A stretch of 64,000 bases of DNA from Syntrophales bacterium (GTDB lineage Bacteria; Desulfobacterota; Syntrophia; Syntrophales; PHBD01). The stretch is from positions 3,840,001-3,904,000 of the forward strand of contig OY764159.1 of assembly GCA_963668175.1 (NCBI GenBank), given 5' to 3'. A program made the translations under genes and the position numbers. Numbering within the stretch: the first letter of the stretch is position 1; every line of letters begins with the position of its first letter. The notes under the pieces are model-generated. The model was not told the origin of the DNA, ran no database searches, and saw only the letters and a program-made list of their open reading frames with translations. Below are positions 34,219 through 40,114 of this stretch, piece after piece.

Positions 34219-34947
34219 TCATTCGTGGTCGAAGATATAGCCGATCGAGCGCAGGCTGCGGAAGAACACGGGATTTTGCGGGTCGTCTTCAAAATACTTC
34301 CGCAGGCGCACGATGAAATTGTCTACGGTGCGCGTTGTCGTTACGCCGGAATATCCCCAGCACACCTCCAGCAGGGTCTTTCTTGATAATGGCTTGCGGC
34401 GGTTCAGAATAAAGGTCCGCAAAAGCCGCACCTCCTGATCCGTCAACTGGATGATCCCCTGCCGGCAATAAGCGGTCATCGTCTTGAAGTCGATGGTGTT
34501 TCCCCCGAACGTGTACGGCTGGCTCCCGTCCAGGTCAAGAAGATCTTCGGCCTTGACCTGTCCGCCCCAGGATGCCCGCATCAGCAGACGTTCGACCCTG
34601 AGAAGGAACTCTTCCAGGTTGAAGGGCTTGGCGAGATAGTCGTCCACTCCGTAAGAGAACCCTTTGATTTTGTCTTCCGAACCGCTCTTGGCGGACAGAA
34701 TCAGGACGGGCAACTTCTCGTCCTCCAATCGGATATGGCGCAGCACGGACAAGCCGTCCATTCCGGGGAGCATGATATCGAGCACGATAAGATCCGGATT
34801 TTCGAGCTTCCACATCTGGAGTCCCTGGGTGCCGTTTCCCGACACGGATACCTCATACCCTTGAAGAGTCAGATTTAATTTTAATCCTTCCGCTATATGG
34901 CCGTCATCCTCGATGATGAGGATGCGTTTTGCATGGACCTGCTTCAT
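34219..34947 (-). CDS. OmpR/PhoB family response regulator
   Basis: IIEDD, LDIMLP, DDYLAKPF, TRTVDNFIVRLRK, GY.F. Confidence 0.95.
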   Translation of the reverse strand: MKQVHAKRILIIEDDGHIAEGLKLNLTLQGYEVSVSGNGTQGLQMWKLENPDLIVLDIMLPGMDGLSVLRHIRLEDEKLPVLILSAKSGSEDKIKGFSYGVDDYLAKPFNLEEFLLRVERLLMRASWGGQVKAEDLLDLDGSQPYTFGGNTIDFKTMTAYCRQGIIQLTDQEVRLLRTFILNRRKPLSRKTLLEVCWGYSGVTTTRTVDNFIVRLRKYFEDDPQNPVFFRSLRSIGYIFDHE

Positions 34948-35915
34948 CCCTCATCTCCTTCTTTCTTACTGTAAGACAATGCCAAAGTGAACAGAGATCC
35001 TTTTCCTTCCCCTTCGCTGTCGGCGGTGATCTTTCCCCTGTGAAGGCGGGCGATTTGCTGGACAAGGTACAGGCCGATGCCGCTTCCTCCCGACGTTGTA
35101 TTGTCGGGCCTGTGACCTTGATAAAACTTCTTGAATATACTTTTCTTTTCTACCTTGGTGAGGCCGATGCCGTTGTCCCGGAAGCGGATAAACAGGGCAT
35201 CCCTGCCCTCTTCAAAGGAGATGACCATCCGGGGCTTACCCGATGCGTTGTATTTGATGGCATTGGTCAGGATATTCATTAAAAGCATCTCGAAGAGGGA
35301 TACGATGATCGGATGGAAAATCGCCTGCCCCACAGGGGCATCCACCTGTATTTCTGAATCCCTGAAAATATGGCGGTTGGCGGCCAGAAAACGCCTGACC
35401 GTATCAATCACATCGACCAGAACGAATTCTTTTTCATAAACCCGGCTTTCTATCCGGGCGAGATTCAGCATGCTGTTGATGTTGACGGAAAGACGCTCGA
35501 CGTCCTGAAGCATAAAGCCGATATATTTGAGCAACTCCTCCCGGGGAAGCTCATGGCGGTTAAACGTTTCAAGGTAAAGTTTCAACGAAGTCACCGGCGT
35601 TTTAAGCTCATGGGTGAAATTATTGATGAACGTGTTCTGCAGGCGATAGAGTTGAAGCGTCTTTAGATTATAGATCAGGATGATCAAGATGCCCACAAGA
35701 ATGACACTGACGAGGAGAGACATGACGAGGATGACAACCCAGGTCTTGGCCTCGAAAAACTGGTTCGGATCGAGGTTATAATGACTGACAACCGATTTGA
35801 GGCCGGCACTGATTCCTATATACCAGTAAATATAAAGGAATAGTGAAATAGCCAGACAGACCGTCGAGAGCACGAAAACGAAAATGGGATGAAAAAACCA
35901 TCTTGCTTGTTTCAT
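34944..35915 (-). CDS. Sensor histidine kinase with two TMs and a short extracytoplasmic loop
   Basis: THELKTP, NILTNAIKY, DNGIG, GSGIGL. Four-base overlap with the regulator. Confidence 0.95.
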   Translation of the reverse strand: MKQARWFFHPIFVFVLSTVCLAISLFLYIYWYIGISAGLKSVVSHYNLDPNQFFEAKTWVVILVMSLLVSVILVGILIILIYNLKTLQLYRLQNTFINNFTHELKTPVTSLKLYLETFNRHELPREELLKYIGFMLQDVERLSVNINSMLNLARIESRVYEKEFVLVDVIDTVRRFLAANRHIFRDSEIQVDAPVGQAIFHPIIVSLFEMLLMNILTNAIKYNASGKPRMVISFEEGRDALFIRFRDNGIGLTKVEKKSIFKKFYQGHRPDNTTSGGSGIGLYLVQQIARLHRGKITADSEGEGKGSLFTLALSYSKKEGDEG

Positions 35916-35982
35916 ACGTGCAGTAACTATCCGACCCTACGTCCCATGTCAACTTCCCATTTTCAGAACCTGCGACATGCCC

Positions 35983-36000
35983 TGTAAAAATAATGTAAAA
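35983..36000 (+). promoter_or_regulatory. OmpR-family (CpxR-like) direct-repeat box
   Basis: TGTAAAA-ATAA-TGTAAAA with an 11-bp period, between divergent TTGACA elements (35952-35947 minus; 36054-36059 plus). Confidence 0.55.
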
Positions 36001-36098
36001 CGAGACGGGATAACGTCAAAAATGGGCTTCTTTTTTATAACTTGCAATACCTTTTGACATCGGATAAAGATTTAGTAATTCTAACAGCGAGTCAGACG

Positions 36099-36434
36099 AT
36101 GATCCGGCATTATGGAGACATTATTCCCGGAAGGATACAGTTGTTCCTATCCTTTCTCATCTTGGCGATTTTCACGGGCGCCGCATATTTTGAGGACGGC
36201 GGCCTTCGCCTGACTGCGGACATTGCCGCGATCAGCAGCAATACGGACGACCCTGGAACGGACCGTTGCGCAGTAAAATTGAAACAGACGATTTCATTCT
36301 GGTCTGCTCGCTCATTGCAGGGTATATTTCCGGAAATAACCCGATTGACTTCATTTCAAGACTACAGGATTCCGAAAAACCACATCGTCTCTCCATCTCT
36401 GGGGAACAGAGCACCGCCGACAGCCTTCTCATAA
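36099..36434 (+). CDS. Putative leader/arrest peptide with N-terminal hydrophobic segment and C-terminal RAPP motif
   Basis: LFLSFLILAIFTGAAYF hydrophobic stretch; ends SLGNRAPPTAFS* with RAPP at 36408-36419; follows a TTGACA element. Confidence 0.65.
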   Translation: MIRHYGDIIPGRIQLFLSFLILAIFTGAAYFEDGGLRLTADIAAISSNTDDPGTDRCAVKLKQTISFWSARSLQGIFPEITRLTSFQDYRIPKNHIVSPSLGNRAPPTAFS

Positions 36435-36528
36435 TCATCCGTTTATTGTCGATCTTTCTTGAGGTCATTGTACAGACCGCGCAACGCCAAGAATACAGCG
36501 GCTGACGCGTATCGGGAGGGAGAAAACC

Positions 36529-36981
36529 ATGAAAAAAAAGATTGGTCTTGCAGCAGGATGCATGTTATTCATGATATTCATCTCGTCGGCCTCGACGTAT
36601 GGCGCGTCGAGAGAAGGCAACATCCTGACCGTTCGCTGGTGGGAGCAGCCGCAATATGTCGAGATGTTGGGGTTAACCGATCAACAAATCGACAGCATTA
36701 AAGAGAAATATCTGAGGGAATCCGGCAAGCTAAACAAGATGCGAATAGACATCAAGCGTCAGCGCAGCGCCCTTGCCAAGATGCTGCTTGAAGGTAAACG
36801 GGATGAAGTGAACACAGACATCCTGGTGGATAAACTGGCCGCCTCGATGTCGGAAGAAACCAGGACGGAGCTCTCGCTCAGGATATTGCTGATCAAGGAA
36901 TTAACGGACGAACAACGGACGAAATTCAAGGAAGCCGATAAAAGAAAATATTCTGATCGTTATAAACCTAAGAGCGATTGA
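36529..36981 (+). CDS. Spy/CpxP/ZraP-like periplasmic helical protein
   Basis: Signal peptide; two LTxxQ motifs (LGLTDQQ, ELTDEQR); 150 aa; strong RBS. Confidence 0.85.
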   Translation: MKKKIGLAAGCMLFMIFISSASTYGASREGNILTVRWWEQPQYVEMLGLTDQQIDSIKEKYLRESGKLNKMRIDIKRQRSALAKMLLEGKRDEVNTDILVDKLAASMSEETRTELSLRILLIKELTDEQRTKFKEADKRKYSDRYKPKSD

Positions 36982-37040
36982 GAGGAAGAAAAATAAGTTT
37001 GGAACATGAGAAATGAATCTCTTAAAGGAGGAATAAACCT

Positions 37041-37241
37041 ATGTTTGGTAGTATAGGTATGCCCGAAATGATCATCATCCTGGTGATCGCCCTCGTTGTA
37101 TTTGGCCCGGGAAAGTTGCCGGAAATCGGCGGTGCCATCGGCAAGGGCATCAAGGATTTCAAGCGGGCGATGACCGAACCCGAGAAAAAGGCTGACGACC
37201 AGTCGGACGCGAAACGCATCAAAGACGGGCAGAATACATAA
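37041..37241 (+). CDS. tatA: Twin-arginine translocase subunit TatA/E
   Basis: MFGSIGMPEMIIILVIALVVFGPGKLPEIG..IGKGIKDFK. AAAGGAGG RBS. Confidence 0.95.
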   Translation: MFGSIGMPEMIIILVIALVVFGPGKLPEIGGAIGKGIKDFKRAMTEPEKKADDQSDAKRIKDGQNT

Positions 37242-37257
37242 TCCGGAACCGGATTAT
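37238..37257 (+). terminator. Hairpin at the tatA stop (possible terminator)
   Basis: ATAATCCGG-AA-CCGGATTAT perfect inverted repeat; no long U-tract. Confidence 0.4.
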
Positions 37258-37408
37258 AGCGTCAAACGGTTCATTCGGCGGCACGATTTGCAGGCATGGC
37301 CGTCTCTAATCTGGCACAGAAGGGTTACGGCCGATGCGATAGCCGTATCGTAAGATATCACTGCGCAATCCGCAACCTACAGAAACTTTTCAGCGAAAGC
37401 GTACAAGC

Positions 37409-38671
37409 ATGCTGACGGAGACGACACCGCAGGTTTTTCTCTTCTTGAGCCATATCCTGCGAAAGAAGATTCTGACTCCCGACGGAACGGCGATCGGCAG
37501 GATCGACGATCTTGTGATCAATATCGCCGAGCAATACCCTGTTGTCACCGATGTCGTTGTGTCTCCGAAGGGAAAGAAGACAAAGGGCATTGTCCCATGG
37601 CATAAGTTCAGCCCCGGCGACGGTACGCTCGTTTTTAAAGAAACGTCGGTGGATACCTTTCCCGATCGGCATTTGTCGGATACGGAACTCCTGCTCAACC
37701 AGTCCATGATGGACCAGCAGATCGTGGATACAGACGGCGCGAAAGTTAGGCGTGTCAACGACTTGCAGTTCCTGAGGGCAAGGGACAATCTGTACCTCGT
37801 TCACGTGGACGTCGGGTTTCGGGGACTGATGCGGCGGGTGGGGCTTGAAAAACCCGTCGTTTCCATTTTGCGTTCCCTGTTCGATTACGACCTTCCCGAC
37901 CAGTTCATCTCCTGGAAATTCGTTCAGCCCGTTGCGCACCCCGACCTGCTGCGGTTGAACATCACCCAGAACCGTCTGGCGCAACTGCACCCGGCCGATT
38001 TGGCCGATATTATTGAAGATTTGGACATTTACCAGAGAACGGCCGTCTTTCAATCTCTCGACGTGGAGACGGCGGCGGAAACCCTGGAAGAAACGGACCC
38101 GAAAATCCAGGTGAGCTTGATCGAGGATATGGAAGCGTCCGAAGCCTCCGATATCATCGAAGAGATGTCCCTGAGCGAGGCGGCGGACCTCTTGGGAGAT
38201 CTCCCCAAGCACAAGGCGGAAGGCATCCTCAAGGAGATGGAGCATGAAGTGGCCGAAGATGTGAAAGAACTGCTTGCCCATCCCGACGAAAAGGCCGGAG
38301 GACTCATGACGACGGCCTTTCCCCATTTCCATCCGGACCTGACCGCCGCCGAAGCATTGGAGACCCTGCGGCGGGAGGCCGAAGACATGGACATCATCTA
38401 TTACGTCTATGTCATCGATCATGACGAGCATCTCCTCGGCGTCGTCAGTCTTCGGGAACTGCTTACCGCGCGGCCGGACGTCATACTCTCCGAGCTTATG
38501 GACACCAGGATCGTTTCCGTAGGTATCGACGAAGATGAGAAGAACATCGCCGATATCTTCGCCAAGTACGGCGTTATGGCCGTTCCGGTTACGGACGAGG
38601 AAAACCGCATTCAGGGAGTGATCGACTTCAAGAACCTCCTGGAGATCGTGGCGCCCCAGTTGGGAAAATAA
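37409..38671 (+). CDS. Soluble MgtE intracellular-domain protein (PRC-barrel + MgtE_N + CBS pair, no TM domain)
   Basis: VDTDGAKVRRVNDL, LHPADLADIIE, AGGLMTT, IYYVYVID, two CBS domains; no hydrophobic C-terminus. Confidence 0.9.
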   Translation: MLTETTPQVFLFLSHILRKKILTPDGTAIGRIDDLVINIAEQYPVVTDVVVSPKGKKTKGIVPWHKFSPGDGTLVFKETSVDTFPDRHLSDTELLLNQSMMDQQIVDTDGAKVRRVNDLQFLRARDNLYLVHVDVGFRGLMRRVGLEKPVVSILRSLFDYDLPDQFISWKFVQPVAHPDLLRLNITQNRLAQLHPADLADIIEDLDIYQRTAVFQSLDVETAAETLEETDPKIQVSLIEDMEASEASDIIEEMSLSEAADLLGDLPKHKAEGILKEMEHEVAEDVKELLAHPDEKAGGLMTTAFPHFHPDLTAAEALETLRREAEDMDIIYYVYVIDHDEHLLGVVSLRELLTARPDVILSELMDTRIVSVGIDEDEKNIADIFAKYGVMAVPVTDEENRIQGVIDFKNLLEIVAPQLGK

Positions 38672-38833: not shown

Positions 38834-40114
38834 ATGCCTGACCAGGTCGCGGAGAAAACAAGCACGGGCTTCGTCCGTCGCCTTTCTGAGGGGCGTTCAT
38901 GGCGGTCGTTCGTCCTTTTCTTCGCCCTCATCGGTCCCGGAATCATCACCTCGAATGTCGATAACGATGCCGGCGGCATAACCACCTATTCTCTCGCCGG
39001 AGCCAATTACGGCCTCGGCCTTCTGTGGATACTCATCCCCATCACCCTTGCCCTGATCATCATTCAGGAAATGAATGCCCGTATGGGCGTCGTTTCCGGC
39101 AAAGGTCTTTCGGACCTCATCCGCGAACGTTTCGGCGCCAAGGTGACATTCTACCTGATGGTCACGATGTTTATCGCCAATCTCGGCAATACCGTATCCG
39201 AGTTCGCCGGCGTGGCGGCCAGCCTGGAAATCTTCGGCATCAGCCGCTACGTGTCCGTGCCTCTGGCCGCAATCTTTGTCTGGTGGCTCATCGTCAAAGG
39301 AAATTATAAATCTGTCGAGAAGGCCTTTCTTTTCGCCTGCGTCTTTTACGTCGCCTATATTATCTCCGGTTTCATGGGGAGACCGAACTGGTCCGTCGTC
39401 GGGAACGCGCTTATAACACCGACGATCAAAGCAGATCCCGCTTTTCTGACGATGGCCGTGGGCGTTATCGGGACGACCATCGCCCCCTGGATGCAGTTTT
39501 TCCTACAGTCGTCGATCGTCGACAAAGGACTGAAGGCCGAGGATTATAAATATTCCAGGATGGATGTTATCTTCGGTTCGTTGACCGTCAATGTCGTCGC
39601 CTTTTTTATCATTATGATTTGCGCTGTGACGCTTTTCGAGCACGGCATCAAGATCGAGACGGCCAAGGATGCGGCCCTGGCCCTGAAGCCCCTGGCCGGC
39701 GAATATTGTTCCTGGCTTTTCGCTTTCGGACTCCTCAACGCCTCGCTTTTTGCGGCATCGATCCTGCCGCTATCCACCGCATACACCATCTGCGAGGCCT
39801 TCGGCTGGGAATCCGGCCTCAATCACCGCTTCATCGACGCGCCTCAATTCTACGGTATGTACACATTGATGATCCTTCTCGGAGCGGGGCTCATCCTCCT
39901 GCCGAACGCTCCCTTGATCTCCATCATGTTCTACTCGCAGGTCATCAACGGCCTTCTCCTGCCCTTCATACTGGTCTTTATGCTTCTGCTCATCAACGAT
40001 CGGCGGATCATGGGGGAATACGTCAACGGTCTGACCGTGAATATCCTGGCCTGGACGACGGTCATCGTCCTTATCGTACTTTCCTTAGCGATTGTAGTTA
40101 CTTCCTTCTTGTGA
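38834..40114 (+). CDS. NRAMP-related Mg2+ transporter (NRMT clade)
   Basis: About 11 TMs; GPG...DNDAGG in place of DPGN; GTTIAPW in place of the MPH motif; QEMNARMG. Confidence 0.88.
   Translation: MPDQVAEKTSTGFVRRLSEGRSWRSFVLFFALIGPGIITSNVDNDAGGITTYSLAGANYGLGLLWILIPITLALIIIQEMNARMGVVSGKGLSDLIRERFGAKVTFYLMVTMFIANLGNTVSEFAGVAASLEIFGISRYVSVPLAAIFVWWLIVKGNYKSVEKAFLFACVFYVAYIISGFMGRPNWSVVGNALITPTIKADPAFLTMAVGVIGTTIAPWMQFFLQSSIVDKGLKAEDYKYSRMDVIFGSLTVNVVAFFIIMICAVTLFEHGIKIETAKDAALALKPLAGEYCSWLFAFGLLNASLFAASILPLSTAYTICEAFGWESGLNHRFIDAPQFYGMYTLMILLGAGLILLPNAPLISIMFYSQVINGLLLPFILVFMLLLINDRRIMGEYVNGLTVNILAWTTVIVLIVLSLAIVVTSFL

Follow-up and report, generated by a model that had tools for sequence, protein, structure and literature searches.

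Does a short open reading frame (ORF) that ends four codons after the tetrapeptide RAPP, and that stands before a gene for a Spy/CpxP-like periplasmic protein and a tatA gene, act as a translational arrest leader? The question is raised by a locus in a 64,000-nucleotide (nt) stretch of a Syntrophales bacterium genome (assembly GCA_963668175.1, contig OY764159.1, positions 3,840,001 to 3,904,000), here called the window. ApdA, ApdP and the "RQH" class are RAPP-like arrest peptides encoded upstream of secDF or secA (Sakiyama 2021, PMC7897499; Fujiwara 2024, PMC10987492; Morici 2024, PMC10951233), and small secretory or membrane ORFs with RAPP or RGPP, CruR/DUF2946 among them, have been described before genes of many kinds (Fujiwara 2025, PMC12992588). 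A preliminary description of the window proposed that the frame is a leader of this kind, citing RAPP/RAGP stalling in ApdA/ApdP and ApcA and the motif's occurrence in CutF/CruR-type leaders. This background holds for ApdA/ApdP, whereas published accounts give RAPG for ApcA and RAGP for SecM, and describe CutF as a polyproline leader rather than a RAPP one. The 111-codon frame encodes a real, conserved small membrane protein, and we consider it rather probable that this protein serves as a RAPP-type arrest leader that would tune the spy-like gene and tatA. The arrest-leader part of the proposal gained from a conserved peptide family, from the pattern of variation inside its motif and from the recurrence of tatA behind it in three arrangements, whereas the specific RNA model attached to it did not stand.

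The leader runs for 111 codons from an ATG at 36099, and the longest frame, read from a TTG at 36042, would yield 130 amino acids (aa). The ATG is the supported start because the two closest homologs, P0001 and P0007, both begin with MIRHY. P0001, also of 111 aa, is identical to the leader at 65 of 111 positions (59%) without a gap, has the same first and last residues and ends in GNKAPPPAFS; it was the sole protein matched by the leader alone among 5.8 billion proteins. P0007 has the same length and 61% identity, and both are listed as hypothetical proteins. The product of about 111 aa, its single N-terminal hydrophobic segment and its C terminus GNRAPPTAFS had all been read correctly from the letters: the Kyte-Doolittle maximum is 2.21 in a 17-residue window, and AlphaFold, given a 28-sequence alignment, placed a helix at residues 11 to 32 with a predicted local distance difference test score of about 90, the rest of the chain being predicted with low confidence.

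A frame arisen by chance in a long stretch between genes would account for the weak Shine-Dalgarno (SD) sequence of the leader and for its absence from the called proteins of the genome. The spy-like gene and tatA each match themselves among the 5.8 billion proteins and the leader does not; because of this missing self-match, it seems to have been neither called nor annotated in its source genome. A chance frame would, however, hardly have homologs of identical length without gaps or belong to a family of 28 members. A wetland-metagenome contig of 405 nt, 96% identical to window positions 35936 to 36340 without insertions or deletions, also speaks against it, with 4 listed differences in the 242 nt of the leader ORF versus 9 in the 163 nt upstream. 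Inside the leader these are F16L, T26A, V59A and one silent change, and three of the four move toward the residues of P0001. The four DNA runs otherwise returned near-identical pieces, with too few changes to test selection, and two metagenome scans and one genome-collection scan, aimed at the DNA of P0001 and P0007, found no relative. We regard the probability of a chance frame as practically negligible.

The leader has company in its own genome. In a six-frame scan of ORFs of at least 40 aa, R[AG]PP occurred within the last 15 residues of 19 of 33,614 ORFs, and four of the 19 share one layout: a length of about 108 to 111 aa if counted from the probable start, a single hydrophobic helix at the N terminus, and RAPP with three or four further residues, the last of them Ser. 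Their C termini read ENRAPPLFS, RKRAPPSFS, TGRAPPTKS and, in the window, GNRAPPTAFS. When the 145 ORFs with a relaxed motif close to the C terminus are ordered by how hydrophobic their N termini are, these four take places 1, 2, 3 and 5. They share no DNA similarity and are therefore not copies of a repeat. Within a crude set of 4,191 genes of the genome, RAPP is about two-fold depleted (11 occurrences where 23 would be expected); the motif stands at the C terminus in four of the 11, three of which are family members. Thus, one genome can hold several paralogous leaders of RAPP type before unrelated operons, if the leader reading applies to all of them.

Beyond this genome, the family was found only via a profile built after the in-genome paralogs had been identified; as a lone query in 60 related genomes, the leader reached a best E value of only 0.02. 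Searches with the profile, which the leader itself matches with an E value of 6.9e-33, detected the RxPP family in 8 of 339 genomes of the order (12 loci), namely this genome with four and seven others; the class-level search covers the same 339 genomes. A search of a 401-genome phylum sample gave no member in the 400 genomes besides this one (13 of them from the same order), and 18 cluster representatives were found among 1.84 billion proteins. None of the 28 members matches a Pfam or NCBIfam model, DUF2946 included, and the family has no conserved Cys/His metal motif; in both respects it is unlike CruR/DUF2946. Judged by sequence, the RxPP-terminated, signal-anchored peptides are a new, uncatalogued, order-restricted family, and the leader is a genuine member of it.

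What this family conserves is the motif and its setting. The 28-sequence alignment averages 33% column identity, and Pro106 and Pro107 are the sole residues shared by every member. Of the 28, 27 retain Arg104, P0001 having a Lys instead; at position 105, 25 have Ala, and Gly, Ser and Pro occur once each. In most members the motif is exactly RAPP and the next residue is Ser, Thr, Leu, Ile, Val or Phe; 24 of 28 end two to four residues after the prolines. The distance from the helix end to the Arg is 70 to 79 aa in 27 of 28, a ruler of about 73 residues despite a poorly conserved linker sequence. The hydropathy maximum is at least 1.7 in all members except P0014, which is N-terminally short, and charge across the family averages +2.6 ahead of the helix and -3.4 in the 35 residues that follow it. 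The transmembrane (TM) segment and the terminal RAPP, whose conservation the preliminary description had proposed to check, are kept together in relatives. Mutagenesis of ApdA and ApdP showed Arg and Pro to be irreplaceable, Ala-to-Gly to be fully permissive and Ser, Asp or Pro to be partly so (PMC12992588), and the variation tolerated at x, as read from the alignment, matches these arrest-permissive substitutions. Taken together, the conserved motif, the helix, the fixed linker, the short tail and the depletion of RAPP agree with what has been published on arrest peptides of the RAPP/RGPP kind. By these features the leader appears to belong with the RAPP-type arrest leaders, while it shows no homology to ApdA, ApdP or CruR/DUF2946.

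The same motif could be read as an ordinary pause at a polyproline stretch, dependent on elongation factor P (EF-P) and sensing translation capacity rather than membrane insertion. Such a pause would suit the extra-proline variants, KAPPP in P0001, RAPPP in P0007 and in the member from genome G156, and RPPP in that from G336. However, most members carry exactly RAPP before a non-Pro residue, RAPP arrest is reported to be EF-P-resistant (PMC12992588), and the conserved helix and fixed linker length would have no role. We therefore judge this explanation to be highly improbable.

The position of the leader before tatA recurs. At 5 of the 12 genomic loci tatA lies downstream of a family member, in three arrangements: leader, spy-like gene and tatA in the window; leader, receiver-domain protein (a single-domain response regulator) and tatA in G122, G162 and G180; and leader directly followed by tatA at G002:C67. 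Since the tatA-linked loci have different genes on the upstream side of the leader, leader and tatA appear to travel together. The leader ends 94 nt before the spy-like gene in the window, as the preliminary description had it, and the corresponding gap is 92 to 98 nt at the loci with the receiver gene (group g13) and 130 nt at G002:C67. The gene behind the spy-like gene, likewise recognized earlier as tatA, matches PF02416 (E value 1.9e-19, 69.1 bits against a cut-off of 21) and TIGR01411 (71.2 bits against a cut-off of 53.9). TatA/B-family genes number four in this genome, which has a single tatC; the tatA of the window is not linked to this tatC and, alone among the four, sits behind an RxPP leader.

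Two further observations bear on the cassettes. At G156:C20 (locus L055), the leader frame overruns its usual stop (RAPPPFHSS..., 124 aa), the receiver gene encodes 97 aa where 121 are usual, and no sign of tatA was found on the strand; leader frame, receiver gene and tatA look degraded together. P0001 and a spy-like protein 79% identical to that of the window each come from one JGI contig, in both cases 3,896 bp long, and P0007 and a spy-like protein 77% identical to that of the window each come from one contig of 984 bp. The equal contig sizes suggest that the leader/spy-like pair is conserved in the subfamily to which the window's leader belongs. The best 120 TatA matches included none from a 3,896-bp contig; a spy-like fragment, P0027, and a TatA, P0034, come from contigs equal in size (3,863 bp).

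The identity of the spy-like gene was also examined. Alone, its product scores weakly against the CpxP, Spy, Metal_resist and LTXXQ models, below the PF13801 threshold. A profile of the protein with seven same-order relatives matched the solved structures of Spy (3oeo, 1.2e-9), ZraP (3lay, 6.7e-8) and CpxP (3itf, 6.1e-7); PF13801 is matched by seven of the eight, the window protein being the sub-threshold one, and close metagenomic homologs carry the source name "Spy/CpxP family protein refolding chaperone." Because of these profile, PF13801 and homolog-name matches, "Spy/CpxP-like" is a fair label, as the preliminary description had used it, with chaperone activity as a prediction.

How might such a leader work? 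The N-terminal signal-anchor would insert cotranslationally with the N terminus inside and the C terminus outside. With Arg104-Ala105-Pro106 on the P-site tRNA and Pro107-tRNA in the A site, peptide bond formation would be blocked as in ApdA and ApdP. The arrest would yield to a pulling force, exerted on the chain by its insertion into the membrane or by passage of the acidic segment across it, and the ribosome would then terminate four codons on; if the arrest lasted, the spy-like gene and tatA would be expressed more strongly. Coupling to the downstream genes might proceed by blocking of Rho, by mRNA stability or fate, or by tethering of the mRNA to the membrane, rather than by an unmasked SD sequence, for which the folding gave no support. 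No terminator-like site was found in 35800-37500, hence none between leader and tatA, and Rfam gave no match.

Several observations weigh against the proposed arrest leader, the first of them from RNA folding. The spacer region folds no better than shuffled sequences (z 0.64), the predicted occlusion of the SD sequence of the spy-like gene is 0.175 against a shuffled mean of 0.188, and a modeled stalled ribosome shifts SD accessibility by at most 0.07 in all five tatA-linked loci and frees the SD sequence in none. The fold with and without a ribosome footprint, suggested earlier as a check, accordingly gave no unmasking, and an SD-sequestration switch was rejected as unsupported on these three grounds. 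SD sequences before the leader ORFs of the family are weak or badly spaced. The majority of RAPP-containing proteins are reported to cause no ribosome stall (PMC10987492). P0001, one of the two closest homologs, carries KAPPP instead of RAPP, although Arg is reported to be irreplaceable, and tails of 8 to 19 residues follow the motif in 4 of the 28 members. No close co-directional gene was seen behind the member at G002:C46. At the three other paralogs of this genome, A, B and C, the next gene begins only after about 340 to 490 nt, and a leader role is therefore less clear there. In addition, the divergent two-component system next to the window locus might regulate the spy-like gene without the leader.

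The specific pairing in the preliminary description was between CCTTCTC (36424-36430), just after the RAPP codons, and the SD sequence GGGAGGG. It comprises seven pairs on paper, two of them G-U, and is not among the predicted SD partners, which lie at 36388-36394 and 36453-36460. If stalled at 36414-36419, a ribosome would span about 36399-36429 and with it the CCTTCTC site.

The spacers offer two observations of their own. The distance from the P-site Pro codon to the next AUG is 115 nt in the window (36414 to 36529) and 115 to 116 nt at three of the g13 loci (L052, L053 and L054); the spacers behind this equal distance are unrelated and the downstream genes differ. The leader-receiver spacers of L052, L053, L054 and L055 contain a hairpin, CCUGG-UAAUA-CCAGG in G122 and G180 and UUGG...CCAA in G162, with paired changes and without a following U run.

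Some of these points would be expected if the peptide were a small membrane protein of the single-pass type with its own task, for example as a TatA accessory or in envelope upkeep, and RxPP served as a self-targeting pause or a binding motif without downstream control. Members without a near downstream gene or with gaps of 340 to 490 nt, and the absence of a stall-responsive RNA switch in the folding, would fit such a protein. So would the segment after the helix, D-D-x-S-x-F-W-Q-P-x-N, which is fairly conserved in the B-like subfamily, more so than a mere linker needs. Yet only the prolines of RxPP are invariant family-wide, AlphaFold finds no confident fold beyond the helix, and the variation tolerated at x agrees with arrest competence. 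The fixed distance from helix to motif and the stop two to four codons on fit a ribosome-based device, and the G156 cassette with its seemingly joint decay of leader frame, receiver gene and tatA likewise speaks against such a protein. We consider a protein with its own job unlikely, if by no means far-fetched.

Transcriptional control has also to be weighed, since a histidine kinase and an OmpR-type response regulator are encoded divergently from the leader. From this arrangement, the pair is a possible transcriptional controller of leader, spy-like gene and tatA. In enterobacteria, cpxP and zraP, genes of the Spy/CpxP/ZraP family, lie divergent from the two-component systems cpxRA and zraSR, respectively. 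The layout in the window, with a downstream protein of the same family, resembles these pairs, and the two-component system might essentially control the spy-like gene and tatA, with the leader merely cotranscribed or upstream of the real promoter. Such control is compatible with a leader mechanism; it leaves the conservation of the RxPP family unexplained, and at other tatA-linked loci no such system was seen (a receiver-domain protein only at the g13 loci, tatA straight after the leader at G002:C67). No sigma-70-like promoter was found on the plus strand in 35800-37500. A TTGACA at 36054 was considered as a sigma-70 promoter and rejected, no plus-strand promoter being listed and two of its bases being altered in the wetland contig. 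That transcription by this pair is the essential control, and the leader incidental, seems to us improbable. Unlike cpxP-cpxRA and zraP-zraSR, the window locus has a 111-codon RAPP leader in between and tatA after the chaperone-like gene.

An arrest leader before the spy-like gene and tatA raises the question of whether the other paralogs act in concert with it. The three paralogs outside the window precede a [NiFe] hydrogenase operon, HU/IHF-like and DUF1003 genes, and an ORF without a Pfam match. Paralog A lies about 350 nt upstream of the operon, which encodes the small subunit, the large subunit and a cytochrome b of a periplasmic [NiFe] hydrogenase; the small subunit has a twin-arginine signal (RRSFMK). 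The four paralogous RxPP leaders might form a small translational regulon in which crossing of the acidic segment needs membrane potential or free insertase capacity, a suggestion that we offer only tentatively. It is an equally doubtful extension that in a weak membrane the arrest would persist and extra TatA, the Spy-like chaperone and the Tat-exported periplasmic [NiFe] hydrogenase would be turned on. If this is true, the Tat pathway and energy conservation would for the first time be tied to an arrest-peptide monitor.

The features discussed are collected below.

Table. Features of the RxPP leader locus and of paralog A (positions are those of the window unless another contig is named)
Feature	Position	Strand	Basis or remark
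RxPP leader ORF, 111 aa, MIRHYGD...GNRAPPTAFS	36099..36434	+	Window sequence; subfamily D of the RxPP family
Single TM/signal-anchor helix, codons 11-32 (predicted)	36129..36194	+	AlphaFold; N-flank net positive, C-flank net acidic
RAPP codons AGA GCA CCG CCG (residues 104-107)	36408..36419	+	Sequence
Predicted stall	Pro106 in P site, 36414-36416; Pro107 in A site, 36417-36419	+	Geometry of ApdA/ApdP
Stop codon TAA, four codons past motif	36432..36434	+	Sequence
Spacer between leader and spy-like gene, 94 nt	36435..36528	+	Sequence; SD GGGAGGG at about 36514-36520
Spy/CpxP/ZraP-family periplasmic protein, 150 aa	36529..36981	+	Signal-peptide-like N terminus; LTDQQ and LTDEQ (LTxxQ)
tatA, 66 aa	37041..37241	+	PF02416, TIGR01411
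Histidine kinase	34944..35915	-	Pfam HisKA, HATPase_c
OmpR-type response regulator	34219..34947	-	Pfam Response_reg, Trans_reg_C
Paralog A, 109 aa, ENRAPPLFS at C terminus	G000:C1:1377280-1377609 (locus L034 4281-4610)	-	

Three side observations concern the surroundings of these genes. The N terminus of paralog A, KSRRAVLAV, resembles a twin-arginine motif. The gene upstream of paralog B (G000:C1:2590169-2591587, minus strand; L035 4170-5588) encodes a protein of 472 aa with a match to the FYVE zinc finger (PF01363, E value 1.3e-20), a domain typical of eukaryotes. In the window, positions 37409-38671 encode a protein with PRC-barrel, MgtE_N and CBS domains in which no membrane domain was detected, followed by an Nramp transporter gene at 38834-40114.

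Among known systems, MifM of Bacillus subtilis is a 95-aa monitor of YidC encoded upstream of yidC2; it has several stall sites and frees the yidC2 SD sequence from a hairpin. The leader resembles MifM in its length of about 100 aa, its single N-terminal TM helix, its predicted arrest site near the C terminus and a linker of some 60 to 75 residues, and differs from it in the arrest sequence and in that no SD hairpin switch is predicted. With ApdA, ApdP and the "RQH" class the family shares RAPP a few residues before the stop, an N-terminal localization signal and a place upstream of an export gene, as well as the lack of conservation between groups outside the motif and a patchy, order-level distribution. 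It is unlike them in showing no sequence similarity to them, in having four paralogs in one genome and in that stalling is here a prediction, and its downstream genes are the spy-like gene with tatA, or a receiver gene with tatA, where those of the ApdA/ApdP type are sec genes or yidC.

There is likeness also with the ORFs described in PMC12992588, which are shorter than 300 aa, carry a helix or signal peptide, have RAPP two to six residues from the end (RAPPAFA and RAPPAVS, each before the stop) and precede genes outside the Sec and YidC routes. In contrast, none of the 30 enriched downstream products tabulated with that report is a Tat, Spy/CpxP, receiver-domain or hydrogenase gene. Neither tat nor tatA appears as a word in the main texts of PMC7897499, PMC10987492 and PMC12992588, and a full-text search turned up no publication that ties an arrest peptide to Tat, although an entry in the supplements of PMC12992588 is possible; the preliminary description, too, knew of no characterization of the pairing. 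The RxPP family offers a defined and testable candidate for such a link: it combines a single helix and RxPP with a ruler of about 73 residues between them, and three arrangements place tatA behind it. Its natural variants RGPP, RSPP, RPPP and KAPPP provide ready-made controls. Arrest peptides are established as feedback devices of the Sec and YidC routes, and metal and redox genes have lately been added to these; with the leader before the spy-like gene and tatA, such feedback would probably be linked to the Tat pathway as well.

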